Below are positions 14,541-48,249 of a stretch of 64,000 bases of DNA, piece by piece. Position numbers and translations under genes: made by a program. The DNA comes from an uncultured Alphaproteobacteria bacterium (GTDB lineage Bacteria > Pseudomonadota > Alphaproteobacteria > Rhizobiales > Beijerinckiaceae). The notes under the pieces are model-generated. The model had not been told where the DNA came from and made no database searches. It worked only from the letters and a program-made list of their open reading frames with translations. The number at the start of each line of letters is the position of its first letter. The stretch's first letter is position 1. The DNA lies in assembly GCA_963828185.1 (NCBI GenBank), contig CAWHDV010000008.1, positions 126,029-190,028 of the forward strand. The letters are read 5' to 3'.

Positions 14541-14541
14541 C

Positions 14542-17646: not shown

Positions 17647-17740
17647 CGCTTGCGGGGTCGGATCACCGAAATGCATGGCGCGGCTTCAACAATGCGCGCC
17701 GCGACACCATATCGGCAGCGTCCGAGCGCGTCGGGCGGGC

Positions 17741-26869: not shown

Positions 26870-26905
26870 TGAAAGATGCTCTCTGGCATATTGGAGTTTG
26901 TTCCG

Positions 26906-27775
26906 ATGGCTGAGAAGTCCGGCTCGGCCCATGAATCCGCCGTCCCTCCCGACAGCCTGCATGTCTGCGCGCTTTTACCCGAGGTCGAAACCGCGTTGTC
27001 GACGCTGCGATGCGCTGTCGCCGCCAGCAAAGGCTTTGCGGCGGATATCTGCGCCGTACACGTCGGTTTTGACCCAAAACACACCTTCGTCGACGCCGAA
27101 GAGCAGGACGTCCAGCAGTTGCGGGACATTTACGAAGGCGCGCCGGAAGTCCGGACCGCCCGCATCAAGGCGATTGTCGACGCCTTCCAGATTTCGTCGC
27201 CGGACGCGCCGCACATCGATTGGCGCAATGACGAGGGAGACATCGCCGCCAATGTCGTGTTCGAAGCCTATGTGGCGAGCCTCGTCGTCATCGGCCGCCC
27301 CGTTCACATGGACGCAGCCGACGCCTTCCACAGCGTGCTGTTCGGCGCGCACCGCCTTGTGCTTTTGGCGCCTCGCGATGTCGGCGGCGCGGAAAGAACG
27401 ATAGGGCGGCGTATCGTCGTCGGCTGGAAGCCTGGAAAGGCGGCGGAGCAAACGGTGAAGGCCGCGCTGCCCTGGTTGAGGAAAGCGGAAAAAGTCAGCG
27501 TCGTCTGGACGGCAAAGGCGGGCGCCGAACCCTATGATCAAAGCGCGCGCGCCTTTTTCGCGAAAACCGGGATCGAAGCCAATATCATCCGCCTTGAACC
27601 GGGTCGCCAAAGCGTGGGCTTGCAATTGCTCGACGAAACGAAGCGCCTCGGCGGCGACTGCCTGTTGATCGGAGCCTTCCGGCGCAGCGCTCTATGGGAA
27701 ACCCTGCTTGGCGGCGTCACTCATGACGTTCTCAACCACGCGGAACTCCCGGTCTTTCTGATGCGGGCCAAATGA
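26906..27775 (+). CDS. Universal stress protein (tandem Usp domains)
   Basis: IVVGWK..AVKAALPWL, LLIGAF..LWETLLGGVTHDVLNHAELPVFLM; GGAG SD. Confidence 0.88.
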   Translation: MAEKSGSAHESAVPPDSLHVCALLPEVETALSTLRCAVAASKGFAADICAVHVGFDPKHTFVDAEEQDVQQLRDIYEGAPEVRTARIKAIVDAFQISSPDAPHIDWRNDEGDIAANVVFEAYVASLVVIGRPVHMDAADAFHSVLFGAHRLVLLAPRDVGGAERTIGRRIVVGWKPGKAAEQTVKAALPWLRKAEKVSVVWTAKAGAEPYDQSARAFFAKTGIEANIIRLEPGRQSVGLQLLDETKRLGGDCLLIGAFRRSALWETLLGGVTHDVLNHAELPVFLMRAK

Positions 27776-27815: not shown

Positions 27816-29798
27816 TTAAAACAGCGTCAATCCCAGCACGAGCACGAGCAGGAAGCCGATCAGGCCGATGTAAAAGTTCAAGCTTCCCGACTGGAGCAAT
27901 CGAAGTTTGCCGGAAACGGCGCGCACGGCGCGCACCGAGGGCTCGAACAGGTGGGGACCAAAAATCGGCGCCACGTCGTGTTCGAAACTGAGTTTCTTCA
28001 CGAAATAGCCGCCGGCGTCGGCATCCCGCTCGGTGATCGCCGTCGGGCGATAGACGAAACTGTAGAATGTGCGCATGGCGTTCGAGAAAGTCAGGGCGGT
28101 CGTCGCGGCCCGCGCCGGATCGTGCGAGAGCCCGCCGTACCAGACCCGGGATCGACGGACGGGATAGCGTCGACTGGCCAGGATGAGCCCCACCGGCACG
28201 AGCGCCAGAAGCGGCATGACGACGACAAGCAGCGTCGGCGAAATGAACGCGAAATGCGCGGTGAGGGGAACGAGAAGCGGACCGTCGTGCATCAGGCGTG
28301 ATACGGAAGCGCCAAAATGGTTCGCCGTCGCCACATCGAGCGCGTCCAGCCAGATCGGCATGCCCGCCCCGAGGGCAAGGACCGAAAGTCCCAGCAAGCC
28401 GACGGTCAACGCGTAGGGGCGCGAGATCGGCGCGGCGCGACTGGCGTCTCGCCCGAGAGCGCCAATGCCGAACAGCTTCACGAAAGTGGCGAATGCGATG
28501 GCCGCGGTAAGAGCCAGTCCGGCGCCGGTGAGCGCCAGCACGAGACGGCCGGCGAGGTCGGGCAGATGAAAACCCTGGAAGACCGTCTGGAACATGAACC
28601 ATTCGCTGACGAAGCCGGCGACCGGCGGCATGGCCGCGAGACTCATGGCGCTGAACAGGGCGCCGACGCCGAACAGCCAATTGCGTCCCGCCCCGCTCGT
28701 CGTGATCGCATAGGTTCCCGACGAGCGATACAATCCGTCCGCCGCCAGGAACAACGAACCCTTCGCCAGCGCATGGCCGGCGAGATGCAGCAGCGCGACG
28801 GTCCAGGCAAGCCCGGCGAGATCGGCCATGCGATAGTGGCGAAAGAGCATCGCGGCGCCGAGGGCGACGACAGCGATCGACGCGTTTTCCGCGGAAGAAA
28901 AGCTCAGGAGCCGGCGCCAGTCATCCTGCTGGAACGCATAGAGGATGGTCAGGATAGCGCTGATCGTTCCAACCACGATGACAATGATGGAAAGCAACGG
29001 GAACGAATGATCGGGCGCCGCGGGCAGCCATTCGACCAATCCGCGCGATAGCCCGAAGAACGCCGCATTCAATACGACCCCGGAAAGGATCGCGCCCGTC
29101 GCGCCGCTGCCGGAGCCGTAAGCGCCCGGAAACCACTCGTAAAACGGCGCCAACCCGAGCTTCGCGCCGAAGCCGGCCAGCAAGAGAAGGCCGACGCCAA
29201 GCCGCATTGCCGGCGTCAAACCCGACGCGCCCTTGACGAAGCCCGCGAAGCCGAGCGAATTGGCTCCAAGGCTTAAAATTGCGACGGCAAGGACAAGGGC
29301 GACAGCGCCGACTTCCAGCAGCGCAAGCATGAACAGGATCGTCCGTCCGGGCGACGGCTCCATCCGCTCCGACAAGATCATCACGGCGCCGCCGAGACCT
29401 ATCGCCTCCCAGGCGACAAGCAATGCGGCTCCGTTTTGCAGCCCGAACACGCCGAGCGCGCCGAGCAGGCTGAAGGCCGCGCCGAAAAACCAGCCGCCTC
29501 GGCCGCGCTCCGACGGACTAGCAAACGCACACGCGAACACGGCCGGCGTCAAACCGAACCCGAGCAGCCACAGGGCCTCCGGCGCCAGATGGAAGGCCAC
29601 GGCTTCCCCCGCGAGCCGGACCGGCAGCCGAACCGGGTCGGCCGCATTCGGAAGCGCGAGACTGGCGGCGGCAACGCCAGCGACGGCGCCGATGGCCAGC
29701 AGAACGCCGCTGAGCCTAGCCCAACGCTTCGACAGCGCAGCGACGGCCGCTCCTGCCCACAGCACGAAGGATGCCAGAAGGAGCCAGTCAGCCGCCAA
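27816..29798 (-). CDS. Proton-conducting membrane subunit, HyfB/NuoL-like (Ehr complex)
   Basis: AWEAIGL, GFGAKLGLAPFYEWFP.AY, LLSFSSAEN, HALAKGSLFL, LAAMPPVAGFVSEW; TTG start with GGAGG SD, overlapping the upstream gene. Confidence 0.9.
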   Translation of the reverse strand: MAADWLLLASFVLWAGAAVAALSKRWARLSGVLLAIGAVAGVAAASLALPNAADPVRLPVRLAGEAVAFHLAPEALWLLGFGLTPAVFACAFASPSERGRGGWFFGAAFSLLGALGVFGLQNGAALLVAWEAIGLGGAVMILSERMEPSPGRTILFMLALLEVGAVALVLAVAILSLGANSLGFAGFVKGASGLTPAMRLGVGLLLLAGFGAKLGLAPFYEWFPGAYGSGSGATGAILSGVVLNAAFFGLSRGLVEWLPAAPDHSFPLLSIIVIVVGTISAILTILYAFQQDDWRRLLSFSSAENASIAVVALGAAMLFRHYRMADLAGLAWTVALLHLAGHALAKGSLFLAADGLYRSSGTYAITTSGAGRNWLFGVGALFSAMSLAAMPPVAGFVSEWFMFQTVFQGFHLPDLAGRLVLALTGAGLALTAAIAFATFVKLFGIGALGRDASRAAPISRPYALTVGLLGLSVLALGAGMPIWLDALDVATANHFGASVSRLMHDGPLLVPLTAHFAFISPTLLVVVMPLLALVPVGLILASRRYPVRRSRVWYGGLSHDPARAATTALTFSNAMRTFYSFVYRPTAITERDADAGGYFVKKLSFEHDVAPIFGPHLFEPSVRAVRAVSGKLRLLQSGSLNFYIGLIGFLLVLVLGLTLF

Positions 29799-30586
29799 CG
29801 CGACCTCCCCTGACCCGTTGAGGCGCGCGATCGAGAAACATCAGCAGCGCCTCGATGATCGCCGCAGGATTCGGAGGGCATCCTGGCAAATAGAGATCGA
29901 CCGGAAGCACGCCTTCAAGTCCTGTGCCGCAAGCATAATTCCCGCCGGCGATTCCTCCCGACACCGCGCAGGTCCCTACCGCCATGACCCATCGCGGTTC
30001 CGGCATGGCCTCATAGGTCGCCCGGAGCGGCTCGAGCATTGGCCGCGTGACCGGCCCCGTCACCAGCAACAAATCGGCGAAGCGCGGCGAAGGCGTGAAA
30101 AAGACGCCGAAGCGGTGCAGGTTGTAGAAGGGATTGTCCAGGCCTTGCAACTCGGATTCGCAGCCATTGCACGAGCCGGCGTCAACGTGGCGAACATGCA
30201 GGCTGCGGCGGAACGCTTGACGGTCTTGGCGCTCTTGCTTGCCCGCGGCCTGCGGCGCCTTGGCGTCCGCAGCCCACACGAGGTCATCGCGGCTGCGGAC
30301 GCCGAACGCCCAATCGCCGGACGGCGCCATGGCCCCGGTCGGACAGGCCTCGGTGCAAAGCTGGCAGACGACGCAACGTCCATAATCCAGCGCGATCTTG
30401 CCGTCGCGCGCTTCGATTGCATGGGTGGGGCAGGCGGCGGCGCAGTCGTCGCAACCTTGCTGGCACGCCTCGGGATTGAATTCGAGGCATGCCGAGAAAC
30501 CCGGCCTGCCCGTCGTCGCCCTTCGCAGCGGGCCAGGCCGTGGTGGCCTTGCCGCTCGCCAGTCCAAACAAGGTCCAAAGCGCCAT
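29788..30586 (-). CDS. Small subunit, NuoB/HyfI-like, fused to an N-terminal 2x[4Fe-4S] ferredoxin; +1 frameshift at about 30481
   Basis: The true N-terminus MALWTLFG (ORF 30284..30586, SD GAGG) joins CQQGCDDCAAACP / CVVCQLCTEACP and GSCNGCE..SPRFAD..GTC..GCPPNP. Confidence 0.88.
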
Positions 30587-30596
30587 CCTCGTCCCC

Positions 30597-32063
30597 CTAA
30601 CGGTCGCAGCCTGCCACGGTCAGCCCGAAGCTCGCCTCGTTGATTGCGTAATCCATCATGTTCGAGTCATGCACGGTGAAGGGAAAGGCGCGCCAGTTCG
30701 AGAACGAGGGAGACTTGATTTTTACTCGCGCCAGTTTGCCGTCCGTACCGACATGAATAGCGTAGAAGACCGATCCGCGCGGTCCCTCGGCCCATCCCAA
30801 TCCTTCGGACAAGGCGGGCGCATCACAGGGCGAGCGCACCTCTCCCGGCTCAAGCAGGAGGAGGACGCGCTGGCAGAGAACAAAGGCCGCTTCGACTTCC
30901 GCGATGCGAATTCGCGCGCGGGCGTATGCGTCGCCTTCGCCAAGCGTCATCACCGTCAAGGGAAGCTCGGCGTAATGCGCATAGGGATGGTCGCGGCGCA
31001 GATCGCGATCGAGGCCGGAAGCGCGCTCCACCGGCCCTGTCGCGCCCTGGTCGAAAGCGATGTGCTGGCGAAGCCGCCCCGTCGTGATCAGGCGGTCGAG
31101 ATGGCTTTCCGATGCTTCCAGGCGACCAACATAGGACACGAATTCGCCCCGCAACGCCTCCAGCGCCTCTCCCAGCCATTGGCCAGGCGCCAGGTCGCGG
31201 CGCAAGCCGCCTGGCGTGAGAAGGCTGCGCAGGAAGCGACTGCCGGTCAACCGCGCGTTCAGTTGCTTGGCCTTTTCCTCAAGCAGCTTTCCCTGCGCCT
31301 CGCCGACTTTGAGCGTCGTGGTGTGGCAGAGATGGCCGAAATAATGCAGATGGTTGTAAAGACGTTCAAGCTCCGCGAGCAGAACGCGAAGAGCGCGGGC
31401 GCGAACGGGTATTTCGCATTCCGCCGCGCTTTCCACCGCCTGGCAATAGGCCAAAGCATGCGCGACGGAGCCGACGCCGGAGACGCGTTCCGCCACCACG
31501 ACCGCAGGACCCGGCGAACAGCCTTCAAACCGCGTCTCCATCCCTCGGTGTTTGAAGAAAAGCCGCGGCTGATAGTGGATGATGTGCTCGCCGACATAAA
31601 AGAACACAAATTCCGCGGATTCGAAAACGTCTCCCCTTACCGGCCCGAACGGGAGTTGCTGCACGTCCTTTGCGTCGAGGGCTGGAAGGTGCTGCCGGCC
31701 GTTCAACGGCTTACGTTCAACCAGCTCCTCCCCGTTGACCTGCGACGCAGCGCCCTCGCGAAGCACCAGCCGGTAAGGCTCGGGATGATCGGTGAATTGC
31801 ACACCGTGGAGATCCATCATTTCGCGTTCGTACCAGGACAGGAGCGGCCATATTTGCGCGAGACTCGGGACCGTGGCCGCCGATGGCAGGATCCAGATTT
31901 CGAAACCTTGCCGGCCGGGCAACGCGACGACATAGCGGATTTCGATTTCGCCATCTTGCGACCACGCATAGGCGAACTGCATGCGACCGCCCGCATCGCG
32001 CAGCGCCTGCGCGTGCGCGGCGAGCGCGTCTGTGGTGATCGCTTTGATCCGCGCGCCTTTCAT
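30597..32063 (-). CDS. Large subunit, NuoC/D-HyfG-like, lacking both [NiFe]-binding CxxC motifs (EhrL type)
   Basis: ERVSGVGSVAH in place of RxCGxC; C-terminus SFGLTVAGCDR in place of DPCxxC; EGPRG and KSPSFSNW retained. Start MKGARIK at 32063. Confidence 0.9.
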   Translation of the reverse strand: MKGARIKAITTDALAAHAQALRDAGGRMQFAYAWSQDGEIEIRYVVALPGRQGFEIWILPSAATVPSLAQIWPLLSWYEREMMDLHGVQFTDHPEPYRLVLREGAASQVNGEELVERKPLNGRQHLPALDAKDVQQLPFGPVRGDVFESAEFVFFYVGEHIIHYQPRLFFKHRGMETRFEGCSPGPAVVVAERVSGVGSVAHALAYCQAVESAAECEIPVRARALRVLLAELERLYNHLHYFGHLCHTTTLKVGEAQGKLLEEKAKQLNARLTGSRFLRSLLTPGGLRRDLAPGQWLGEALEALRGEFVSYVGRLEASESHLDRLITTGRLRQHIAFDQGATGPVERASGLDRDLRRDHPYAHYAELPLTVMTLGEGDAYARARIRIAEVEAAFVLCQRVLLLLEPGEVRSPCDAPALSEGLGWAEGPRGSVFYAIHVGTDGKLARVKIKSPSFSNWRAFPFTVHDSNMMDYAINEASFGLTVAGCDR

Positions 32064-32070
32064 CGCTTGC

Positions 32071-33541
32071 TCACATTGGGTTGCCGGGCGTGAGGGCTTG
32101 GGCGATGGTGACGAAATGGTCCCACAATTGCTGCGGCCACCACAGACCCAGGAAAAAAAGCGGCAATATCGCCAGCCACATGGGCGCGAGGCGCCAGGCG
32201 TCGATCGGGGGCGGCGCCTTGCGTCTCGCGCCGCCGCTCTCGAAATACATCTGCCGGAAGTGATTGAGGAATCCGACAAATATCACGACGAGAAGGACGG
32301 CGATCAGCGCGACCAGCGGCCAATGCGATTGCGTGAGACCAGCGCGCATGATCGTTAACTCGCTTTGGAACAGCCCGAAGGGGGCGCCCGGTAATGGCGA
32401 CGGCTCCGGCGAGCCAGAGCCCGCCGAGAACCGGCAGCCTCTCGCCGACGAGGTGAATGCCGTGAATGCGCTTGGCGCCATAGGCGCGCATCACGCTGCC
32501 CGCTCCGAAGAACATCGCCGACTTGTTGAGGGAATGATTCAGCATGTGGTAAAGCGCGCCCGCGACGCCGAGCGAGCCGCCGAGTCCGAAGCCGATGGCG
32601 ATCATTCCCATGTGCTCCACGCTCGAATAGGCCATCAACCGCTTGATCCCGGTCTGGCGAACGATGAAGAGCGCGGCCACGAACAGCGAGACGGCGCCCA
32701 ATGTGATGACGGCGCCACGCGCCAGCGCCGCAATTCCCACGGCGTCGGCGATGGCGAGGTAACGCACGATCCCGACCATGGCCGTGTTGAGCAGCGCGCC
32801 CGACAGCAAGGCCGACACAGGCGCGGGACCTTCGCTATGGGCGTCGGGCAGCCATGTATGCATGGGGGCGAGGCCGGCTTTCGTGCCGTAGCCGATGAGC
32901 ACAAGCAAAAATGCAAGCGAGACCAGGGCGGGATTGAGGCGCGGCGCGACCTGGCGCAGCACATCCCAGGTCATGTCGTAGGTCGGGCCGAGGACGAATG
33001 TCCCGCTCCAATAGAACAGGACCGTGCCCAGCAGCGCCAGGCTGATCCCCGCCGAGACGATGATGATGTATTTCCAGGCGGCTTCGATGCTGGCCGCCTC
33101 GTGCTCGAATGCGACGAGGAAAGTGCTGATGAGGGTCGTCAGCTCGATCGCGATCCAGTAAAGCCCGGCGTTGTTCATCAACGGGGCGATCAACGTGCTC
33201 AGAGCAAATCCCGCGAACATCGCGTAAAAGCGATTGAGGCGTTGGGGTTTGTCGAGGAGGCGCATGTAGCCGACGGCATAGATCGACGCCAGGAAGTAGA
33301 CGATCGCCGCACAAAAAATCGACCAGGCGCCGAGCCCGTCGATGACGATGTAGCCATCCAGGAATGTGGTCGGCCCGCATGGCGCGATCAGCAGAATGGC
33401 GCAGATCGAGGCCAGCGAGACGGCGCTCGCTGACAGGTTGAGCAGTTCCGCGGCGCGCGGCCCTCTCGTGACCGCGATAAGGAAGATTGCGACCGCGGGC
33501 GCCAGGGTCATCGTTGCAACGAGTGGTCCGACCGCGCCCAT
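32071..33541 (-). CDS. Proton-conducting membrane subunit, HyfF/NuoM-like; frameshift at about 32385
   Basis: WIAIELTTL, EAAWKY, GYGTKAGLAPMHTWLPDAHSE, MAYSSVEHMG. AITG-APPFGLFQSE is restored by two extra bases in the G/C runs at 32380-32389. Confidence 0.88.
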
Positions 33542-34221
33542 CAGCCCACCAGACGCTTGAGGTGGAGGGAGCTGGTCGTGCCGACGTGGGTCAAAAGGTA
33601 CTGAACCAGGACGCCAAAGCACGCCACGACGATGAGAAGATCGAAGAGGATGACGATCTCGATCAGAAGCGGCATGCCCGGCACGAGGATTTGCGCGCCG
33701 AGGAAAACGCCGTTCTCCAAGACGAGCAGGCCGAGAATTTGACTGACCGCCTCATGGCGAACCGAAAGCATCAAAAAGCCGATGAGTTTCATCGACAACA
33801 TCACGGTTAGCGCGAGGACCGCGACCGTTCCGGCGAGACCCAACGCTTCGCCGATACGATAGGAGACGGCCAGCGCAAAGATCACGGCAAAGGCGCCGAC
33901 GACGAGGCTCGAACTCGCCTGCAAGATGACATGCGCTTCGCGGCTGACCTCGAGGCGGCGGATGATCCTGAGGATCAGATAGGGCAGCAGCAGTCCGCGG
34001 AATGCGGCAGTGAGAATGGCGACAATGTAGAGTTCGGCATAGTTTCCATAGAACCCGACGGCGGCCGATAATGCAGCGATCAGCCACGACTGGGCTGCGA
34101 AGGCGAACATGTAATGGCGCAATGAATGCGACCCGAGCATCACGAAGGCGAGCAGCAGGCTGCCAATCGCCAACAGGCTGAACAGCGAAGCAGGAAGAGG
34201 AGCGAGGTGCGCTGCAAGCAT
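33541..34221 (-). CDS. HyfE-like membrane subunit (C-terminal NuoK-like region)
   Basis: Hydrophobic; SQILGLLVLENGVFL and EIVILFDLL motifs; position between hyfC- and hyfF-like genes. Confidence 0.85.
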   Translation of the reverse strand: MLAAHLAPLPASLFSLLAIGSLLLAFVMLGSHSLRHYMFAFAAQSWLIAALSAAVGFYGNYAELYIVAILTAAFRGLLLPYLILRIIRRLEVSREAHVILQASSSLVVGAFAVIFALAVSYRIGEALGLAGTVAVLALTVMLSMKLIGFLMLSVRHEAVSQILGLLVLENGVFLGAQILVPGMPLLIEIVILFDLLIVVACFGVLVQYLLTHVGTTSSLHLKRLVG

Positions 34222-34225
34222 GGGG

Positions 34226-35173
34226 TCAACTCAGCTGCGTGCCGACGATGGCGAGGATTGCGAGAAGAAACGACGCGGCAAGCGGCTCCTGGTAACGGTA
34301 AAATCGAAGGCGCGACTGGACGGTCTCGACAAAGACCACGACGCAGCCGACGACAAGAAATTTGGCGAGAAGTGCGGCGATCGATCCGACGACGCCGAGC
34401 GCCGTTCCCTCGGTGGACAAGGCCCAGGGAAAGAGCAGCACATTCGAGAAAATCGTGTAGAGGATGAACTGCTTCATCATCGAGGCCCACTTCAGGATGG
34501 CGAGCATCGGACCGGAATATTCGAGGATGCGCGCCTCGTCGATCATGTAGATTTCGATATGCGTGCTGGAATGGATCGGCAGCCGGTCGGTCTCGACAAG
34601 CAGCAGGACGAAGAAGGCGGCGACCAGGAACAAGTGCGTCGGCCCCCAGTAGATCGAGGGCTGCGCCACCAGCAGGTGATTGACGACAAAAGGGAGCATC
34701 GCCTTCGCCAGCAACGTGATTCCGACGAAGACCAAAATCAGCGTGGGCTCGGCGAGAATGGTGACCATGACGGCCCGGCTCGAGCCGATGCCGCCATAGG
34801 CGCTACGGGTGTCGAGACCGGCGAGCGTGAACATGAACGAGCCGAGCGTGAGTATCAGGCCGCCGCCAAGGATATCGCCCATGTCGGACAGCGGCAGCGG
34901 ATAGTTCGTCAGGACGGGAATGAGAATTGGAACCGTCAAGGTCGTGGTGAACGCGACGATCGGCGCCACCCAATACAACCACGACGCGGTGTCGGGAAAG
35001 ACGATCTGCTTGTGGAACAGCTTCCAGAGGTCGCGATAGGGTTGGAGGACGCCCGGCCCCTGGCCTCTCTGCGCCCGTTCTTCAAACTGGAGGATGACGC
35101 CCTGCAGGAGAGGAGCGAACAGCAGCGTCGCGAGAACCTGTGCTATCTGCAGAAGAACGTCCCGAACGGTCAT
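34226..35173 (-). CDS. HyfC/HycD/NuoH-like membrane subunit
   Basis: GPGVLQPYRDLWKLFHK, GGIGSSRAVM, ETDRLP, LEYSGP, ETVQSRLRF. Confidence 0.9.
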   Translation of the reverse strand: MTVRDVLLQIAQVLATLLFAPLLQGVILQFEERAQRGQGPGVLQPYRDLWKLFHKQIVFPDTASWLYWVAPIVAFTTTLTVPILIPVLTNYPLPLSDMGDILGGGLILTLGSFMFTLAGLDTRSAYGGIGSSRAVMVTILAEPTLILVFVGITLLAKAMLPFVVNHLLVAQPSIYWGPTHLFLVAAFFVLLLVETDRLPIHSSTHIEIYMIDEARILEYSGPMLAILKWASMMKQFILYTIFSNVLLFPWALSTEGTALGVVGSIAALLAKFLVVGCVVVFVETVQSRLRFYRYQEPLAASFLLAILAIVGTQLS

Positions 35174-35250
35174 TGGACAGTTCTCGGCAAGCCGCGCCAA
35201 ATGGCTGCGAACTGCGAACGATCAGGGACAAGGGGAAATCGCTCTTTCAA
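35170..35250 (-). CDS. Putative 26-aa leader ORF between the riboswitch and the hyfC-like gene
   Basis: SD GGGAG (35263-35259), 8 nt, TTG 35250; MKERFPLVPDRSQFAAIWRGLPRTVQ; its TGA overlaps the hyfC-like ATG (ATGA). Confidence 0.45.
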   Translation of the reverse strand: MKERFPLVPDRSQFAAIWRGLPRTVQ

Positions 35251-35281
35251 GGCGCACACTCCCATCTGCCAAAATTGGCTC

Positions 35282-35333
35282 GACAGGAGTCATCAGCCCT
35301 GGGGGCGGTTAGATGGCGAACTCCATCACCACG
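35282..35333 (-). ncRNA. Fluoride riboswitch (crcB motif) aptamer
   Basis: GGUGA-U-GGAGU-UCGCC-AUCUAACC-GCCC-CCA-GGGC-UGAUG-ACUCC-UGUC. P1 GGUGA/UCGCC, pseudoknot GGAGU/ACUCC, P2 GCCC/GGGC and the conserved URAUG are all present. Confidence 0.92.
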
Positions 35334-35339
35334 GCGCTT

Positions 35340-35368
35340 AGGCTGCGCGCGGCGCCATGACTTGTCAA
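35340..35368 (-). promoter_or_regulatory. sigma70-type promoter driving the riboswitch-Ehr transcript
   Basis: Perfect TTGACA (35368-35363), 17 nt, CAGCCT (nAnnnT-type -10), placing +1 a few nt before the aptamer. Confidence 0.7.
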
Positions 35369-35577
35369 GAGGCGTCGCCGTCCAGTTCGGATCGATCTTT
35401 GCTGACAATCTGATGCCCCTGCCAAGCCGACGGTCTATCCAACATTCAGGGGCGACCCATCGTTCCATGGTTCTCGTTGGCGCATTCGGCTTCAGCTTCC
35501 AGGCGCGAACGCTTCCGACTGACGAGCAGACGATCATGACGAGAAACCGAGGTCTGTTCAGGCGCGGGACTCGGCCT

Positions 35578-35640
35578 GCGCCGCCATGAGCGCGGGCGAT
35601 TTCCGAGGCGATATAAAGCCCCAGCCCCGATCCCTGTTTG
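35578..35640 (-). pseudogene. Histidine kinase ATPase-domain remnant
   Basis: Encodes KQGSGLGLYIASEIARAHGG (G2 box) with no kinase-like sequence on either side. Confidence 0.65.
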
Positions 35641-35806
35641 CTTGGACTGTTACGCTCAATTTTAGCGGCGCCCGACGCGTCCGTCCTTCGCGCCATGTGT
35701 CAGGGCGTTCGCGACCAGATTGGAAAGCAACCGCGTCACGTTGCTCCATGTGCACGGACGCGAATGGGAGCTTTGCAATCCGCATATCGCGGACAAAGAC
35801 ATCCGC

Positions 35807-36169
35807 TCAACGGCCTTGCAGAGGAGCGTGGAAACTCTGCCCGGCGGGATTGTACAGCGCCGGCCAGCCCCGGCGGTTGGAATAGTCGGTCATGCTGAGG
35901 CCAAACAGGAACAACAGCCAGAAGAAGCCGCTGGCCGCGAACATCCACTTCAGCGTCGGCGGCCCCTTCAAGCGCATGAACAGGCTGAACAGGATCGCGG
36001 TCTGGGTCGCAGCGACGCAGAACTCGGCGATCGGCCCCCACTTGCCGAGCCCGAGGAAAGCCGTCCACAAACTGGCGCCGCCGAGCAGCATCATGACCAG
36101 CCAGGCGACGACGAAGGGCGCCGCCCGCGCGCGCCTCGCGTCGGTCTCGATTTTCGGCGCGGCGCTCAT
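35807..36169 (-). CDS. Cytochrome c oxidase subunit IV family protein
   Basis: Small three-TM protein (ILFSLFMRLK..FFWLLFLFGLSMTDY); last gene of the cox cluster, ATGA overlap. Confidence 0.8.
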   Translation of the reverse strand: MSAAPKIETDARRARAAPFVVAWLVMMLLGGASLWTAFLGLGKWGPIAEFCVAATQTAILFSLFMRLKGPPTLKWMFAASGFFWLLFLFGLSMTDYSNRRGWPALYNPAGQSFHAPLQGR

Positions 36170-36816
36170 GAGCGGCCTACCAGGTAAATGCACGGGTAGA
36201 GGTAAAGCCAGACCGTATCGACGAAGCTCCAGTAGATGCCGACAACTTCGATCGGCGCGAAATAGGCGGGCGTGATCTCGCCCCTGCGAATTTTCCACAG
36301 CAGGATATAGAGGACGAGGCCGATGCCGATCGTCAGATGGATGGCGTGCAGCCCGGTCGCGACCCAATAGAACACCCAGAACAATTCGCCGGCCGGCCCT
36401 TCGCCCGGCTTCGCCACGTAATTGACGACCGGAACGACCTTGTCCTGAAAGTCGAGATAATATTCGAAGCCCTTGACCCCCAGGAAGAGGAGGCCGAGCG
36501 CCACGGTCGCCACGAGCCAGCGGACCATGGTCTTGCGCCGCCCCTGCGCCGCGGCGTTGACGGCGAGCACCATGGTCAGGCTGCTGGTCAGCAGCAGCGC
36601 AAAATTGACGCTGCCGCACCACAGCACGGCCTCCTTGCCCGCGACGGCGAAATCATGCGGATAGGCCAGGCGGTAGATGAAATAGGCGAAGATCAACGCG
36701 CCGAAAAAAATCGTTTCATTGACCAGGAACACCCACATGCCCAGTTCAGCCGTATCGCCTTGCTGCTCGAGGCTCGCATATTGCACTTCGGGGCGCAGGA
36801 CGACGTCAGCCGGCAT
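36166..36816 (-). CDS. coxC: Cytochrome c oxidase subunit III
   Basis: LGMWVFLVNETIFFG, LLTSSLTM, ATGLHAIH, YWSFVDTVW. Confidence 0.92.
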   Translation of the reverse strand: MPADVVLRPEVQYASLEQQGDTAELGMWVFLVNETIFFGALIFAYFIYRLAYPHDFAVAGKEAVLWCGSVNFALLLTSSLTMVLAVNAAAQGRRKTMVRWLVATVALGLLFLGVKGFEYYLDFQDKVVPVVNYVAKPGEGPAGELFWVFYWVATGLHAIHLTIGIGLVLYILLWKIRRGEITPAYFAPIEVVGIYWSFVDTVWLYLYPCIYLVGRS

Positions 36817-38476
36817 GCGTGACTCCTTCCTGGGTAGTATAACGGCCATCTTCTGGATCGTAGGCATAGGGTCCGCGCGTGACGACCGGCGTTCGTTCGA
36901 AATTGTGCTTGTGCGGCGGCGACGGCGTGGTCCATTCGAGACCGGTGGCGCCCCACGGATTGGCCGTCGCCTTGCGGCCCCAGATCAGCGACCAGCCGAG
37001 ATAGAGGAGCGGCAGGACATAGGCGACGGCGAGGATCGAGGCGCCCGCTGACGACAGGAGGTTCCACGACTGCCATTCGGCCGGATAGGTGTAGGACCGC
37101 CTGGGCATGCCGAGATAGCCGAGGATGAATTGCGGGAAGAAGGTGAGGTTGAAGCCGACATAGGTGAGGATGGCCGCCAGCCGCGCCCAGCTTTCCGGAA
37201 ACATCCGTCCCGTCATTTTCGGCCACCAGTAGTGCAGCGCGCCGAAGAAGGCGCTCACGGTGGCGCCCACCATGATGTAGTGGAAATGGGCGACGACAAA
37301 ATAGGTTCCGTGCACGTCGACATCGATGGCCAGCGTCGCCAGCATCAGGCCGGTGAGGCCGCCGAGCGTGAACAGGAGAACGAAGCCCAGCGCATAAAGC
37401 ATCGCCGCGTCGAAGACGATTTTGCCCTTGTGCAAGCTGACGGTCCAGTTGAACACCTTGATCGCCGAGGGCACGGCGACGAAGAACGTCAGCAGGGAAA
37501 AGACGATGGCGGAATAGATCGAAATTCCGGCCACGAACATGTGATGCGCCCATACGAAGAAGCTGAGGATGGCGATCGACATCAAGGCGATGGTCATGCC
37601 CCTGTATCCGAAAATCGGCCGGCGGGCGAAACAGGGAATGATCTCGCTCACCACGCCCATGCCGGGCAGGATCATGATGTAGACGGCAGGATGCGAGTAG
37701 AACCAGAACATGTGCTGCCACAGCAGCGGATCGCCACCGTGGGCCGGGTCGAACAGCCCGACGCCGATGAACCTCTCGACCGCGAGCAAAAACGTGTCCA
37801 TCGCCAGGACCGGCGTCGCCGTCAGCATCACCACGCTCACCGCGTAAATGGCCCAGACGAACAGCGGCAAACGCATCCAGGTCATGCCCGGCGCGCGCAT
37901 GCGGTGGATCGTGACGACGAAGTTCAACCCGGTCATGATCGACGAGAAGCCGTTGATGAAAACCGCGAAGGCCGCCGCGAACATGTAGCCGTTGGCGTAG
38001 ATGGTCGAGAGCGGCGGGTAGAACGTCCAGCCGGCGTTGGCGCCGCCCATGATCAGCGCGTAAAGCACGACCAGCCCGGACAGGTTGAACACGTACCAGC
38101 TGAGCAGATTGAGGCGCGGGAAGGCGAGATCGCGCGCGCCGATCATCATGGGGATGAAGAAATTGCCGAAGGTCGCGGGTATCGACGGGATCAGGAAGAA
38201 CCAGACCATGATGATCCCGTGCATGGTGAACATGCGGTTGTAGACAGCGGGCTGCAGCAGGCCTCCCGGCGTTGCGAGGTTCAATCGCATCAGCGTCGCG
38301 GCGAAGCCGCCGATGAAGAAGAAAAACGTGATCGAGGCGAAGAAGAGCAGCGCAATGCGCTTGTGATCCTTGGTCAGGAGCCACGAGCCGATGGTGTTCT
38401 CCACGCCCAGGTAGCTGGGTTCGGCCGATGCGGGCGCCTCGCCCGGTGGGACGCGTTCGACGGCGGTCGCTGTCAT
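36806..38476 (-). CDS. coxA: Cytochrome c oxidase subunit I, A2 type (YSHPAVY)
   Basis: TKDHKRI, FTMHGIIM, WFYSHPAVY, VWAHHMF, VAHFHYIM. Confidence 0.96.
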   Translation of the reverse strand: MTATAVERVPPGEAPASAEPSYLGVENTIGSWLLTKDHKRIALLFFASITFFFFIGGFAATLMRLNLATPGGLLQPAVYNRMFTMHGIIMVWFFLIPSIPATFGNFFIPMMIGARDLAFPRLNLLSWYVFNLSGLVVLYALIMGGANAGWTFYPPLSTIYANGYMFAAAFAVFINGFSSIMTGLNFVVTIHRMRAPGMTWMRLPLFVWAIYAVSVVMLTATPVLAMDTFLLAVERFIGVGLFDPAHGGDPLLWQHMFWFYSHPAVYIMILPGMGVVSEIIPCFARRPIFGYRGMTIALMSIAILSFFVWAHHMFVAGISIYSAIVFSLLTFFVAVPSAIKVFNWTVSLHKGKIVFDAAMLYALGFVLLFTLGGLTGLMLATLAIDVDVHGTYFVVAHFHYIMVGATVSAFFGALHYWWPKMTGRMFPESWARLAAILTYVGFNLTFFPQFILGYLGMPRRSYTYPAEWQSWNLLSSAGASILAVAYVLPLLYLGWSLIWGRKATANPWGATGLEWTTPSPPHKHNFERTPVVTRGPYAYDPEDGRYTTQEGVTHAG

Positions 38477-39414
38477 TGCACGGTCTCCTTTGCCAGCGAT
38501 TTGATGTAGGCGACCAGCTTCAGGATATCGCCCTCGCTGAGCTGGCCAGCGAAATCGGGCATGAGCGGCGCGTAGCCGGCGACGGTGAAGCTGCGCGGAT
38601 TGACGATGCAGTCATGGATATACGCTTCGTTGGCGACGCGGACGGATTGATCCTCCATGTGGACCATCGTGCCGTAGAGCCCGACGAGCGAAGGCGCATG
38701 CACCGTGCCGCCGGGATCGTGGCAGCCGCTGCAGCCATGCGCGCGAAACAGCGCCTCGCCCTGCTCGGCGAGCGACGCGCGCACGCCTTGCCCGGTGAGC
38801 CAGCGCGCGTAATCGGGCGCCGACATGACGATCACCTCGCCCTGCATTTTAGCGTGCCGGAGCCCGCAGAACTGAGTGCAGGCGAGAAAGTAGGAGCCTG
38901 TCTTGTCGGCCTTGAACCACAAGGTCTCGAGCGTGCCCGGCACGACGTCGTGCTTGACGCGGAAAGCGGGCACGAAGAAGCTGTGAATGACGTCCTGCGA
39001 CGCCATCGCCAGCCGGATGGTCTTGTTGACCGGCACGTGGAGCGTGTTGATCTCGCGCTGGCCGCCGGGATGCTCGATCTTCCACATCCAGCGCTTGCCG
39101 ACGACATAGATCTCCTCGTCGCCCGCGGGCGCCTGGAACAGCCAGACATAGAGCTCCGCGCCCCATACGAAAAGGACGAGAAAAAGGCCCAGCGTCGCCG
39201 TGGTCCAGCCGAGTTCGAAACGCCAGGTTTTCGCGGCGAGATTGGCGCGCGAAGCGCTGCTGTCGCGACGATAGCGGACGCAGAAGACCAGCATCATCGC
39301 GACGACGGTCGCCATGATCAGTCCGCTCAGCATCAGTTCGGCGACGAAGAGGCGATTGACCGCCGTGGCGTTGATGGCGGCCGTGTCGGGCCAGAACGGG
39401 ATCCAGCGCCCCAT
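38473..39414 (-). CDS. coxB: Cytochrome c oxidase subunit II with fused cytochrome c (caa3 type)
   Basis: CuA ligands HSFF..CTQFCGLRHAKM; C-terminal heme c motif CSGCH and Met in LMP. Confidence 0.95.
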   Translation of the reverse strand: MGRWIPFWPDTAAINATAVNRLFVAELMLSGLIMATVVAMMLVFCVRYRRDSSASRANLAAKTWRFELGWTTATLGLFLVLFVWGAELYVWLFQAPAGDEEIYVVGKRWMWKIEHPGGQREINTLHVPVNKTIRLAMASQDVIHSFFVPAFRVKHDVVPGTLETLWFKADKTGSYFLACTQFCGLRHAKMQGEVIVMSAPDYARWLTGQGVRASLAEQGEALFRAHGCSGCHDPGGTVHAPSLVGLYGTMVHMEDQSVRVANEAYIHDCIVNPRSFTVAGYAPLMPDFAGQLSEGDILKLVAYIKSLAKETVQ

Positions 39415-39418
39415 GGAG

Positions 39419-40333
39419 TTAGCCCTTCCGTCCAGAGCCTTTTCCGATCCGATGGAATTGGATCAGGGCTCCAGGTTTTTGTTTTGACGCGCTTTCTTCA
39501 CGCGAACCGGTGTCCGCTTCGCTTGAGAACGCTCCGATTGCGGCGAACAGCGCGATGAGCGCAAGGCCCGCCGCCAGGTTGGCCAACATCAGCGCCGCCA
39601 TGACGGGGGCGGTGAAGCGACCGAGCGCCACGCCCTGGATATGGCACAGCAGCACGATCCGGGTGAGCAGCCCCGGCGATTTATCCTGCTCGGCGTCGGC
39701 GAAGGCGCCGGTCAGCTCCTGCGGCGAGACCGCGACGCCTTCCATGTAGCGGCTGATCGCGCCATCGGGCGAGGCGATGATGAAGCCCGCCGGATGGATA
39801 TAGGCGTCGAGGAAGGCGTCGTAGCGGTAGTGAAACCCGGCCGTGTCGGCGATCTCCCGCACCGCGCCCGGCGCGCCGCTGAGAAAGTGCAGGCCGGCTG
39901 CGCCGCCGCGATCGAGCAATGCGGCGAGGCGCGCCCGGGCCGCCGCGGCGTCAACCGCCTTGTCGCGCGGATCGATGCTCACCGCGACAAGCTGGTAATC
40001 GCGTCCGGCTTCAAACGGCAGGCGATCGAGCGCAGTGACGAGATCGCGCAGGGTGACGCCGCACAGCGACGTGCAACGGAGATATTCGAACACCAGGATG
40101 ACCGGCGTCTTGCCGAAAAAATCACCGAGCGCGACTGGCCGCCCCGCCTCGTCGACGAGCTTCGCGCCCAGCGGCATGAGCGCCCCGGGATGCGGTGAAA
40201 AGGCCAGGTTATTGTCGTCCTTCGCAATCTCGGACACAGGCCTCGGCAAGGCGCGCACGAACACCGCGGCGGTGACGCACACCGCGAAGGAAACCAGCAA
40301 GACAGGGGCCGCAATCCCTCTCGTCCGTCTCAT
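39419..40333 (-). CDS. SCO1/SenC copper chaperone with a repeat-derived C-terminal tail
   Basis: YLRCTSLC (CxxxC), VSIDP, YIHPAG; start MRRTRG at 40333 (ATGA overlap). Confidence 0.88.
   Translation of the reverse strand: MRRTRGIAAPVLLVSFAVCVTAAVFVRALPRPVSEIAKDDNNLAFSPHPGALMPLGAKLVDEAGRPVALGDFFGKTPVILVFEYLRCTSLCGVTLRDLVTALDRLPFEAGRDYQLVAVSIDPRDKAVDAAAARARLAALLDRGGAAGLHFLSGAPGAVREIADTAGFHYRYDAFLDAYIHPAGFIIASPDGAISRYMEGVAVSPQELTGAFADAEQDKSPGLLTRIVLLCHIQGVALGRFTAPVMAALMLANLAAGLALIALFAAIGAFSSEADTGSREESASKQKPGALIQFHRIGKGSGRKG
39432..39535. repeat. About 105-bp Rhizobiales-type interspersed palindromic element, in frame within the SCO 3' end
   Basis: Minus strand GGAGCGTTCTCAAGCGAAGCGGACACCGGTTCGCGTGAAGAAAGCGCGTCAAAACAAAAACCTGGAGCCCTGATCC..GGATCGGAAAAGGCTCTGG, forming two hairpins; resembles the dispersed repeat I recognise from Rhizobiales genomes. 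Confidence 0.75.
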
Positions 40334-40842
40334 GGGCGCGTTCCCGCAAAGCCCGGAATTCCCGACGCAACGAGTTTCTTCATCGCCTGCTCGATCGGGA
40401 CGTGCACGATCCCCTTCGACCTGTCGATCCAGTAATAGCCGTTGAGGCGCTTGTCCTCTTCGGCGCGGAAGCGCCTGAGGTCGCCCTGGGGGTCGGTTTG
40501 CAGGTTGGGGCCCGGCGGCGTGAAGCGCAGCGTGCGCGCGACGTCCGGCAGCGATTTGGGATAGGCGGCCATCAGCGCGAAACAGGAGACGACCAGCAGC
40601 GCCAGCGTCCCGACGTAGACCGTCGCGACCGGCGCCAGCCTCCAGTCGGAAGGCTCGAATGCGGTGTCCGGATTCTCGCGCTGAGCGCCTTCGATCTCCG
40701 CGAGGCCGGGCCGTGTCGCGTCTTTGGAGCTTCGCGCCATTGTGATCCTCCATGTCGCAACCGCAAGCAGCAAAACGAGCGCCGCCCACAGCCGGTTCAG
40801 CCAGACCGCCCTCCGGCTTTTTGTCTTCTCCGGCTCAGCCAT
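40330..40842 (-). CDS. ActG-like small membrane subunit of alternative complex III
   Basis: TM helix plus P..P.LQ.DP..DL..FRAEED..LNGY.WID..KG.V.VPIEQAM; lies between actF and sco. Confidence 0.7.
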   Translation of the reverse strand: MAEPEKTKSRRAVWLNRLWAALVLLLAVATWRITMARSSKDATRPGLAEIEGAQRENPDTAFEPSDWRLAPVATVYVGTLALLVVSCFALMAAYPKSLPDVARTLRFTPPGPNLQTDPQGDLRRFRAEEDKRLNGYYWIDRSKGIVHVPIEQAMKKLVASGIPGFAGTRP

Positions 40843-41951
40843 GATCCGCCGCCCGTATCGGCGCGCCGGGAGACGATCCGCGCGGCGCGTGGCGCCATCT
40901 CGAGGCGAACATCATCGCCATGCCGCCGCCGAGCGCCAGCACGGCGGCGACATCGAGCCAGATTGGCGTCCCTTGCTTGAACTCCGGCATGACCAGCAGC
41001 CAGGTGTCGGCGATGCGGCTGATCAGGATCGATACGCACATCGCTGCGACGATGGCGCGATGGCGCTTCGCCGGCGTCCACAGAAGCACGAGGAACGGCA
41101 GGACGAATCCAAGCCCCGCCGAGCTGGCGAGCGCCGGCCGCCAGCGCCGGATCCAGCCGCTTGACGTACCAGGGGATTTCGGTTCTGAGATTCTCTTCCC
41201 AGATGATCAGGTACTGGATGAATTCGACATAAGCCCAGAACATCGTCATCGCGAGCAGGATTTGCGCGAGATCGGCCATATGCGCGCGCCGCTCGCCCAA
41301 TTGCCGGCCTGCCGAAGCGACGGCCAGCACGACCATCGCCATGCCCGTGTTGAACCAGCTCGCCCCTTGCGTGTACGGGAAAATGGAGGACCAGAACTTC
41401 GGCTCCAGCGACAGGATCCAGTCGATGGCGGCAAAGCTCATCGACAGCGCCAGCGCGACGAGGCCGAGGCCGCTGATCCAGGACTGACGGGGAGCGATCG
41501 GACGCAGGCCCTGGCGCGGCCCCAAGACGGCAAACGCCGCGAGGAGATTCCAGACGACGACATAGGCCCCATAGCGGAGGAAGAAATCCGTCCTGTTGAG
41601 ATAGAACAGATTGCCGAGACCGGACGCGGGATGCGTCCAGCCATAGATCGTATCGAGACCGATGAAGGCGGGAATGCCGGCGAGACTCGCCAGCGGCATG
41701 GTCGCGATCGCCGCGTTGAGCGCCGGACGCGCGGCTTCCATCCATTCGCCGCCGGTGAGGTCATGCACGAGAGTCAAGGTCACGCCAGCGAGCGGCAAGC
41801 CGAGCCAGAACAGAAAGCTGCACAGCCAGGCGCGGTAAAACTCCCCCGGCGAAATGGACAGGCCGACGACGCATCCGAGCAGGCCGACTCCAAGAGCGGC
41901 TGCGGCGAGCAGGATCACGGGCGGCTGTCTTTCGCGCATGGCGGCGTTCAT
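40835..41951 (-). CDS. actF: Alternative complex III subunit ActF (NrfD-like membrane protein); +1 frameshift at about 41148
   Basis: FAAIDWILSLEPKFWSSIF, FWAYVEFIQYLIIW.EN..EIPWY; the C-terminus continues in ORF 40835..41089. Confidence 0.85.
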
Positions 41952-44358: not shown

Positions 44359-44390
44359 CGGCCAAGTTCCTCAATGTCTTGCCCTGAACG

Positions 44391-47971: not shown

Positions 47972-48173
47972 TCGGCTTTCCTCGCGTTCCGGCGCTCCGG
48001 GCGCTGCCCGCACGACAATTCCCAAGCCGACGTTTTCGTTCCCGACGCAGGCGGGGAAGGCTCCGCCGTAACCGCGCTGAACCGCGCTGGGGCGCATCGA
48101 AGGCGGGGCTTGGCGGCCGTGAGCAGCAGGTTGTTCACCACCAGCGTTGCCCTCGCCTTTTTTGCTCCGGCGC

Positions 48174-48198
48174 GGAACATCACATTGTGCGCCGGGTT
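48174..48198 (+). promoter_or_regulatory. Putative EcfG/sigmaT promoter of ndh
   Basis: GGAAC-N16-GGTT, about 52 nt before TTG 48250. Confidence 0.6.
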
Positions 48199-48249
48199 TC
48201 AGGGCGAACTGACGCGGCCAACGCGCCGTTGGTTTTGTGGAGCAAGCGC

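Follow-up and report, generated by a model that had tools for sequence, protein, structure and literature searches.

A fluoride riboswitch precedes an operon for a NiFe-less, complex I-like assembly that very probably belongs to the fluoride regulon

Riboswitches of the crcB motif (Rfam RF01734) bind fluoride and switch genes on. Their published targets include 'genes encoding formate hydrogen lyase', and many of the described examples carry an overlapping intrinsic terminator (Weinberg 2010, PMC2864571). A 2024 review, citing its reference 67, places formate hydrogenlyase (FHL) among the commonest riboswitch-associated enzymes and reads the association as anaerobic formate metabolism; it also reports that fluoride lowers the proton-motive force (pmf) and the cytoplasmic pH, and that Na+/H+ antiporters, tied to pH homeostasis, are the commonest riboswitch targets after the exporters (PMC11139923). 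Here we describe a locus of this sort in a stretch of 64,000 nucleotides from an uncultured alphaproteobacterium (GCA_963828185.1, contig CAWHDV010000008.1; the whole stretch is called the window below), in which a fluoride riboswitch stands in front of six genes resembling those of FHL and hydrogenase-4. An earlier sequence-only reading of the window had named FHL-annotated genes among the targets, as they are in both papers, and the association itself is thus not new. The locus belongs to an already known, uncharacterised kind, and the interesting part is the reinterpretation of its product as something other than a hydrogenase.

In Escherichia coli the related complexes FHL-1 (Hyc, 7Z0S) and hydrogenase-4 (Hyf) are regulated by FhlA and HyfR. 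The window operon encodes homologues of HycE/HyfG, HycD/HyfC, HycC/HyfB, HyfF, HyfE, HycF/HyfH and HycG/HyfI. It differs from the E. coli systems in lacking the NiFe cysteines, FdhF, HycB/HyfA, HyfD and nearby maturation genes, in the fusion of HyfH with HyfI, in its gene order (C-E-F-G-HI-B) and in the replacement of FhlA/HyfR control by a riboswitch. With complex I (NDH-1), the ferredoxin-dependent NDH-1 and Fpo-like complexes it shares equivalents of NuoB, C, D, H and I and NuoL/M/N-like subunits, and the cluster-N2-type cysteines and the Glu of transmembrane helix (TM) 5, Lys of TM7 and Glu of TM12 are conserved; unlike them it has no NuoEFG, no separate NuoA/J/K (a HyfE-like subunit is present instead) and no equivalents of Nqo4 Tyr87 and His38. 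The riboswitch-led Na+/H+ and Mrp antiporters resemble it in their presumed pH/pmf task, and its membrane subunits are homologous to MrpA and MrpD. What sets it apart from these antiporters is a conserved Fe-S arm, which argues that the complex is probably a primary (redox-driven) rather than a secondary transporter. Pyrococcus MBS/MBX (6U8Y), DAB2 and NDH-1MS are likewise relatives or offshoots of the same machinery with non-hydrogenase chemistry. MBS/MBX has lost the hydrogenase active site, and other chemistry has been proposed for it. DAB2 and NDH-1MS are described as coupling CO2 hydration to membrane potential or redox turnover. By contrast with all of these, no sulfur or CO2 genes lie near the window operon, and its regulation and partners are fluoride-specific. 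The term Ehr, for energy-converting hydrogenase-related, is said to come from Marreiros et al. in 2013. Ehr complexes are defined by a group 4 large-subunit homologue without the Ni- and Fe-coordinating residues (PMC6349859), and the window operon has both such a large subunit and the accompanying Mrp/Nuo-like, NuoH-like and NuoB-like subunits. Whereas Ehr complexes are generally without an assigned signal or role, the clade to which the window belongs has a defined inducer and a conserved partner, the gene pair crcB-DUF190.

All coordinates given here are positions in the window, and the operon and its riboswitch both lie on the minus strand. A cmscan search against Rfam matched RF01734 at 35277-35339 (minus strand) over the full model (positions 1-64 of 64), with 50.8 bits against a gathering threshold of 34 and an E-value of 3.8e-11, and no other Rfam family rose above its gathering threshold in the whole window. 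The alignment to RF01734 flags no non-canonical pairs, and the UGAUG segment is present. This is the outcome of a search of the kind that the sequence-only reading had called for; its complete crcB-motif aptamer is borne out, with P1, P2, the pseudoknot and URAUG where it had put them. The leader can be summarised as follows.

35340-35368, minus strand: putative promoter, with -35 TTGACA at 35368-35363, a 17-nt spacer and a weak -10 CAGCCT at 35345-35340
35330-35327 with 35318-35315, minus strand: aptamer helix P1 (Rfam alignment)
35306-35303 with 35299-35296, minus strand: aptamer helix P2 (Rfam alignment)
35324-35320 (GGAGU) with 35290-35286 (ACUCC), minus strand: pseudoknot strands, read from the sequence
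35258-35290, minus strand: predicted expression-platform hairpin, in which the pseudoknot 3' strand ACUCCUGUC pairs with GAUGGGAGU and covers the ribosome-binding site (RBS) GGGAGU at 35263-35258
35170-35250, minus strand: leader open reading frame (ORF), starting with TTG at 35250, 26 codons long (LKERFPLVPDRSQFAAIWRGLPRTVQ) and ending with TGA at 35172-35170

Relatives were collected in a scan of species representatives (one genome per species), which found relatives in 538 genomes. The best 80 loci, all from Alphaproteobacteria or unclassified Proteobacteria and with 62-83% protein identity, were analysed. Seventy-three of them, having at least 3.3 kb 5' of hyfG, could be evaluated for an upstream riboswitch (the other 7 of the 80 were cut too short), and leaders were compared across 74 sources, that is, these 73 loci and the window. 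A riboswitch stands at the orthologous site, about 3.27 kb 5' of hyfG, in every one of the 73. From 126 aptamers of the relatives' loci (alignment A2), in which P1 and P2 covary, a clade covariance model, R1, was built and then searched over all loci; the window aptamer scores 72.3 bits under it. Two aptamer candidates from a regular-expression screen, L066:17786 and L079:13086, turned out to be false hits, and the covariance model, checked against Rfam, was used in place of that screen. These comparisons confirm the window element as a fluoride riboswitch. Like the class as a whole it has the full-length match, the P1, P2, pseudoknot and loop nucleotides, the position in a 5' untranslated region and, by prediction, the ON logic, and the genes found with it (crcB, CLC, MutS-like, enolase, pyrophosphatase, HAD and Usp) match the published target list. 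It departs from many described examples in that no terminator was found, in a pseudoknot 3' strand that would double as an anti-RBS strand, and in a regulated start that would belong to a short leader ORF, translationally coupled to the first structural gene.

The evidence for this expression platform comes from folding and from conservation. The 53-nt segment that holds the hairpin has a minimum free energy (MFE) of -21.7 kcal/mol. ACUCC is paired to GGAG(U) in the MFE folds of 62 of the 74 leaders, and this GGAG(U) stands 3-9 nt 5' of a NUG codon. The helix is conserved with compensatory changes (RNAalifold); stem sequences differ between clades while the architecture stays the same, and the helix covaries between clades. 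The start column of the leader ORF is kept as TTG, GTG or ATG (alignment A3), and in 48 of 50 evaluable leaders there is an out-of-frame leader ORF with its stop codon adjoining or overlapping the start of hyfC, mostly as ATGA or GTGA. The window has the ATGA form (TGA at 35172-35170, hyfC ATG at 35173-35171), and its hyfC start lies 103 nt 3' of the aptamer end. The ORF is most often 26 codons long, its peptide sequence is not conserved, and in two loci the conserved NUG is the hyfC start itself. We had also considered an intrinsic terminator as the platform; a consensus scan called none at 34900-35800, and RBS sequestration was preferred. The element is thus quite likely, as far as such predictions go, to be a translational ON switch that acts through a leader ORF coupled to hyfC. 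Without fluoride, ACUCC would pair with the RBS GGGAGU of the 26-codon leader ORF and block it. Upon Mg-F binding, ACUCC would be taken into the pseudoknot and the RBS freed. Ribosomes that have translated the leader ORF would then reinitiate on hyfC via the ATGA overlap, and the remaining operon would follow. An effect of the aptamer on Rho-dependent termination is possible as well.

The promoter has a more mixed record. The TTGACA-N17-CAGCCT sequence claimed in the sequence-only reading is present, and among about 70 orthologous leaders 50 have TTGACA at a fixed distance from P1, with CAGCCT, CAACCT or CAGCTT after it. An E. coli-type scan called no promoter at the TTGACA/CAGCCT site, its consensus being that of E. 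coli. Because the site is conserved in the orthologous leaders, we accept it, despite the silent scan, as a putative promoter with a strong -35 and a weak -10. An ORF of 149 aa without Pfam match (35247-35696, minus strand) overlaps both promoter and aptamer. Near 35590-35650 one frame reads GSGLGLYIASEIARAHGG, which by eye looks like the G2-box end of a histidine kinase and may be the remnant of a truncated gene 5' of the promoter.

Downstream of the leader lie the six genes of the operon.

34226-35173, minus strand: hyfC/NuoH-like membrane subunit, 315 aa (PF00146 NADHdh, 113.5 bits)
33541-34221, minus strand: hyfE-like small membrane subunit, 226 aa (NF008556, 'hydrogenase 4 membrane subunit', 47.6 bits, below the cut-off)
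32060-33541, minus strand: hyfF-like antiporter-like subunit of the NuoM/N type, 493 aa (PF00361, 146 bits)
30597-32063, minus strand: hyfG/NuoCD-like large subunit, 488 aa (Pfam Complex1_30kDa, NiFeSe_Hases N-terminus and Complex1_49kDa)
29788-30586, minus strand: fusion of hyfH and hyfI, a 2x[4Fe-4S] ferredoxin followed by a NuoB-like domain (Fer4 families; PF01058 Oxidored_q6, 104.5 bits)
27816-29798, minus strand: hyfB-like antiporter-like subunit of the NuoL type, 660 aa (NCBIfam hydrogenase 4 subunit B, 266.6 bits over the full length, below the cut-off)

The junctions are, in order, 4 nt, TGATG (the hyfF start ATG at 33541 overlaps the hyfE stop), ATGA, about 10 nt and an 11-nt overlap. 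The start of hyfC was assigned by comparison with orthologues, the hyfE-like gene has the same position and length in the orthologous operons examined, the best NCBIfam matches of the hyfF-like protein are hydrogenase 4 subunit F models, below their cut-offs, and hyfB is the last operon gene in the window. The picture drawn earlier of six co-oriented, tightly spaced hyfC/E/F/G/I/B-like genes therefore stands, since Pfam and NCBIfam assign all six, and so does that of two antiporter-like subunits, two PF00361 proteins being found in one cluster with PF00146 and PF01058.

Inspection of the residues in these proteins separates what has been lost from what has been kept. In the large subunit the L1 motif reads ERVSGVGSVAH, compared with DRVCGICGFAH in HycE, so that RxCGxC is missing, and near the C-terminus LTVAGCDR stands in place of the L2 motif DPCxxCxxR. 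Because the cysteines of both motifs are replaced, the NiFe ligands are gone, and of 82 orthologues 80-82 have the same Cys-less motif. The claim that this is an Ehr-type complex and not a hydrogenase had been made on the window alone and is strengthened by these counts. The core of the protein is nevertheless preserved: E148, R143, D145, H202 and others are invariant across 55-82% identity. Its closest solved relative is HycE (7z0s_E, 5e-46), and the Pyrococcus MBS/MBX subunit 6u8y_L matches with 1.9e-24. When it is aligned to Thermus Nqo4 (2fug_4), the quinone ligands are not found, Tyr87 falling on Gly and the His38 loop GPQHPSTHG on GPVRGDVFE. The large subunit thus fits neither a hydrogenase nor a canonical quinone reductase, in agreement with what has been published on Ehr complexes (PMC6349859). 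The NuoB-like domain retains its four cluster cysteines (GSCNGCE, GTCA, PGCPP), the proximal [4Fe-4S] set of group 4 hydrogenase small subunits, conserved in 80 of 80 orthologues, and the ferredoxin domain its eight; all 12 are present in 77-80 of the 80. In the HyfB-like protein, which matches HycC (7z0s_C) with 3.8e-19, E131, K213, H338, H342, K346 and E399 are invariant in 67-68 of 68 orthologues, and this set corresponds to the TM5 Glu, TM7 Lys, TM8 His/His/Lys and TM12 Glu of NuoL-type channels. Sequence comparison thus points to a NiFe-less, group-4-hydrogenase/complex-I-like assembly of the Ehr type.

The large subunit has thousands of homologues, the closest of which (70-82% identical) belong to Hyphomicrobiales, among them Roseiarcus, Rhodoblastus, Bradyrhizobium, Afipia and Labrys, and are named 'formate hydrogenlyase subunit 5' or 'Ni,Fe-hydrogenase III large subunit' in the databases. 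Cultured carriers include Ancylobacter dichloromethanicus, Rhodopila globiformis and Mesorhizobium composti; the Nitrobacter carriers are metagenome-assembled genomes. Fluoride riboswitches are frequent in these loci. The curated Rfam model finds 37 of them in a 143-kb sample of seven loci, and of the 74 sources with any match, 40 hold two to six within 21 kb. Riboswitch-led neighbours in the alphaproteobacterial loci are genes for MutS-like proteins, enolase-Usp, His-phosphatase, an MFS transporter and CFA synthase. For the region 3' of hyfB, CrcB and DUF190 were tallied from six-frame matches to profile hidden Markov models (HMMs) built from related loci, in the 75 alphaproteobacterial loci with enough downstream DNA. 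The fluoride channel gene crcB (fluc) follows hyfB directly in 56 of these, and DUF190 in 55. Both genes are missing in 14, and another three have crcB at a different place in the locus; six loci that were first scored as DUF190-only have CrcB matches in long open frames. The relatives' proteins match PF02537 (CrcB, 89.8 bits) and PF02641 (DUF190, 79 bits). Independent gene calls in Bradyrhizobium, where the protein occurs in 393 assembly blocks, give the order NADHdh, 226-aa protein, antiporter, large subunit, Fer4/NuoB, antiporter, CRCB, DUF190, with 22 nt between the hyfB-like antiporter and CRCB, 12 nt between CRCB and DUF190, and a riboswitch-type enolase-Usp gene further downstream. The tail is present in all main branches of a neighbour-joining ordering and missing in the window and its close relative L022. 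Because it spans all main branches, its absence from these two looks like loss.

Three further observations concern these loci. Tandem pairs of MutS domain V proteins (about 516 aa) lie behind a fluoride riboswitch in 24 loci (L005, L010, L012, L014, L026, L028 and others; cluster 4); such pairs are the known 'mutS' class of riboswitch targets. There are two types of CrcB: those of L079, L003, L007 and L008 match one another at about 1e-65, while the common tail type matches the L079 protein at about 1e-9, which suggests that crcB has been replaced in some lineages. Proteins without Pfam match also recur near the operon, with about 124 aa (L036 19131-19505), 151 aa (L042 6174-6629), 221 aa (L023 15011-15676) and 370 aa (L081 13495-14607). 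Some of them lie directly behind a fluoride riboswitch of their own, the 221-aa protein follows crcB-DUF190, and they are candidate members of the fluoride regulon.

Outside this group, the operon is found at 55-57% identity, again with a riboswitch in front, on two Burkholderia plasmids, one of them conjugative (134 kb); the plasmid hosts are clinical isolates. On the B. cenocepacia plasmid (NZ_CP073671.1, 93094-112578; locus L081) seven RF01734 riboswitches occur in 19.5 kb. Besides the operon, the riboswitch-led genes there are a pair for inorganic pyrophosphatase and a HAD hydrolase, crcB, CLC, a 370-aa hypothetical protein, and a 206-aa hypothetical protein followed by a dynamin-family gene; DUF190 and His-phosphatase genes are also in this island. 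The island on the B. multivorans plasmid includes an MFS transporter, CFA synthase and a MutS-like gene. A seven-riboswitch island on a conjugative plasmid means that the whole response, the complex included, can move between strains, and this mobility is relevant to the engineering of fluoride-tolerant organofluorine degraders. More distant NiFe-less homologues, at 31-37% identity, occur in Cupriavidus metallidurans, Rhodococcus, Rhizobium and Allomeiothermus. In none of these four loci was a riboswitch found at E<=0.1, and the distant homologues are without the crcB-DUF190 partner as well. Three annotated distant records have the order B-C-E-F-G with the NuoB gene before or after, and two of the three have an HTH or ArsR-type regulator gene upstream. 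The hope that fluoride would prove to be the inducing signal of Ehr complexes generally is thus not sustained: because the distant homologues have no riboswitch, the signal belongs to a single clade and not to Ehr complexes as such.

The window itself holds no recognisable exporter. CrcB and DUF190 have no match in any of its six-frame ORFs even at E<=10 with the profile HMMs, a phmmer search with the Burkholderia plasmid CLC (which has the fluoride-type motifs GREGT and GEVTP) found nothing at E<=10, and neither CRCB nor Voltage_CLC is among the Pfam matches of the window ORFs scanned. The sequence-only reading was therefore right that the 64 kb has no crcB/fluc or CLC-F gene; this is true of the window and atypical of the family, given the operon crcB of 56 of the 75 relatives. 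Its proposal to survey how often such operons carry the riboswitch, and whether their genomes go without Fluc, has a similarly divided outcome, the riboswitch being present in all evaluable alphaproteobacterial loci and the absence of Fluc not being the rule. In the window the place of crcB-DUF190 is taken by a convergent gene.

26876-27775, plus strand: universal-stress-protein gene (PF00582 Usp, 30.4 bits)

This Usp groups with the Usp portion of the enolase-Usp genes that stand behind riboswitches in the relatives. In those loci an enolase with a C-terminal Usp fusion (709-716 aa), led by a riboswitch, lies just 3' of crcB-DUF190 (L011 15933-18083; L088 13931-16060), and in the window Usp is free-standing and inverted at the operon end.

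As a whole, the best explanation of these results, and one that we regard as fairly likely, is a fluoride-switched, NiFe-less, ion-pumping complex. That the complex is fluoride-regulated and belongs to the fluoride regulon is very probable; that it serves as a pump for pH or pmf under fluoride we would put a little short of an even chance. According to this model a sigma-70-type promoter would drive a leader with the fluoride aptamer. HF entry followed by F- exit via Fluc would leave one proton inside per cycle and drain the membrane potential, and a fluoride-induced, probably redox-driven H+ (or Na+) pump would offset this proton and charge load. The pump would consist of a three-cluster Fe-S wire, two antiporter-like ion channels and NuoH. 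Most relatives would make pump and channel (crcB, DUF190) from one transcription unit, of which the window keeps the pump part only. The conservation of the Fe-S cysteines, of the HyfB channel residues and of the Cys-less motif speaks for a working electron-transferring ion translocator, and a part in fluoride stress is suggested by the universal riboswitch, by the operon shared with Fluc and by the other fluoride genes around it. The presence of crcB in the same operon argues against the complex as a fluoride exporter and favours a role as partner of Fluc. It may even be, although we offer this tentatively, that one clade of Ehr complexes is a dedicated Fluc partner: Fluc would release F-, the complex would expel the proton of HF, and the two would jointly export HF on redox energy. 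Of the fluoride-response machine imagined in the sequence-only reading, a conserved regulon member with a favoured role in pH or pmf survives, and export of F- by the complex itself does not fare well. Several points weigh against the ion-pump model. The large subunit has neither NiFe nor complex-I quinone ligands, so that by its sequence no known catalytic site can be named, and for the Fe-S wire neither donor nor acceptor can be named, nor the chemistry where the NiFe site once was. Beside the operon neither an electron-input module nor a partner enzyme is conserved (NuoE/F/G are found neither in it nor in the window, whose NADH dehydrogenase, at 48187-49551, is of type II). Co-transcription with crcB may reflect shared regulation only and not functional coupling. 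The translational mechanism is predicted from folding and conservation, and the window copy, without its crcB-DUF190 tail and with an insertion in the Fe-S gene described below, may be non-functional.

Other explanations have to be weighed against this model. If the genes encoded a true formate hydrogenlyase or hydrogenase-4, H2 would be made from formate and fluoride would shift metabolism to anaerobic fermentation. Such genes are treated as FHL in the review cited above (PMC11139923), in line with the database names, with the best NCBIfam matches (hydrogenase 4 subunits B and F) and with HycE as the closest solved relative. The sequence already contradicts this, and we consider it highly improbable: the L1 and L2 cysteines are missing here and in nearly all orthologues, the NCBIfam matches all lie far below the family cut-offs, and neither the window ORFs that were scanned nor the annotated loci of the plasmids and of Bradyrhizobium include a gene for FdhF, HycB/HyfA, HyfD, hyp maturation proteins or a maturation endopeptidase. 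The named hosts, further, come largely from aerobic or phototrophic genera of Alphaproteobacteria. Export of fluoride by the complex itself, its antiporter-like subunits replacing Fluc or CLC-F, would suit the missing CrcB and CLC of the 64-kb window and the 14 relatives without crcB within 10 kb. It is very unlikely, since a second exporter would be redundant where crcB is in the same operon or, as in the Burkholderia islands, accompanied by CLC, and since what is conserved in the channel is the Glu and Lys set that serves cations and protons in NuoL/M/N; further, within the source genome the search for crcB was confined to the window. A redox-independent, Mrp-like secondary cation/proton antiporter, whose hydrophilic arm would be structural or regulatory, would account for the two Proton_antipo_M subunits with their NuoH- and HyfE-like companions, for a large subunit without a recognisable catalytic site and for the want of a conserved electron-donor partner, and Na+/H+ antiporters are frequent riboswitch targets (PMC11139923). 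The 12 Fe-S cysteines and the invariant core of the large subunit are, however, hard to explain without electron transfer, and we judge this reading rather unlikely.

A further alternative is that the complex is a fluoride-induced respiratory entry point, passing electrons from ferredoxin or another low-potential donor to quinone while fluoride blocks enolase and other phosphoryl-transfer enzymes. The riboswitch-led enolase, pyrophosphatase and His-phosphatase genes of the same islands offer a parallel, the Fe-S wire and the NuoH subunit are conserved, and the window copy lies beside genes for cytochrome oxidase, alternative complex III and NDH-2. The Tyr and His that serve as quinone ligands in NuoD are absent, however, these respiratory neighbours are specific to the window and not conserved in relatives, and we know of no fluoride-sensitive respiratory enzyme that the complex would replace, which leaves this alternative with a small chance of being correct. 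Finally, whatever the family does, the window copy could be decaying from the usual eight-gene unit and no longer functional. It lacks the crcB-DUF190 tail, the Usp gene related to enolase-Usp is inverted at the operon end, and the end of the 149-aa ORF, by eye a 3' fragment of a histidine kinase gene, lies just upstream of the promoter. The Fer4/NuoB gene also has a 1-nt insertion near 30482 (30475-30490), reading CGAATTC compared with CG-ATAC in L022, L002 and L011, so that the conserved start ATG at 30586 (MALWTLFGLASGKATT) is out of frame with the ferredoxin-NuoB remainder (ORF 29788-30567). This insertion could be either a real frameshift or an assembly error. An Lhr-type helicase gene at 17675-22160 (plus strand) is split as well, into three ORFs (833, 105 and 554 aa) between which the Lhr domains run on, and this suggests further assembly indels or a pseudogene. 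Because of this second split gene, assembly indels are a real possibility, which counts against decay; so do an aptamer that scores like those of the orthologues, an intact platform and leader ORF, and five intact, full-length genes. L022, the closest relative, has likewise lost the tail and yet has an intact Fe-S gene. For these reasons a decaying copy seems improbable to us.

If the tentative reading as a dedicated Fluc partner is true, an Ehr complex would for the first time have a defined signal and a physiological role, and the 'formate hydrogenlyase' reading of a common member of the fluoride regulon would be overturned. The locus gives a concrete handle on two questions, the function of Ehr complexes and how the cell covers what fluoride export costs it in protons and charge, and culturable material is available in Bradyrhizobium, Ancylobacter, Mesorhizobium, Rhodopila and the plasmid-borne island. 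In a literature that, as far as subscription journals go, is largely unsearchable, we found no paper tying fluoride to DUF190, to hydrogenase 4 or to a complex of the NiFe-less or Ehr kind, and none tying these genes to co-transcription with crcB-DUF190 or to a leader-ORF mechanism. Possibly new, then, are the non-hydrogenase with conserved Fe-S and channel residues, its place in one operon with Fluc, and the RBS mechanism by way of a leader ORF.

The surroundings of the operon in the window are rich in respiratory genes. A block at 36166-49551 encodes subunits III, I and II of an aa3-type oxidase (II with a cytochrome c domain), SCO1/SenC, an alternative complex III (ActA-F-like) and NDH-2, and a cyo quinol oxidase is encoded at 13428-16607; the relatives do not share these neighbours. 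The window's one large Fe-S protein belongs to the alternative complex III cluster, beside an ActD/NrfD gene. Other gene sets recognised by Pfam are those for valine catabolism, the Lhr helicase, an MFS transporter and sensor-regulator proteins. Response-regulator and LuxR-type genes surround an IS21-family element at 57788-60108 (minus strand), which encodes an IstA-like transposase and an IstB-like ATPase.

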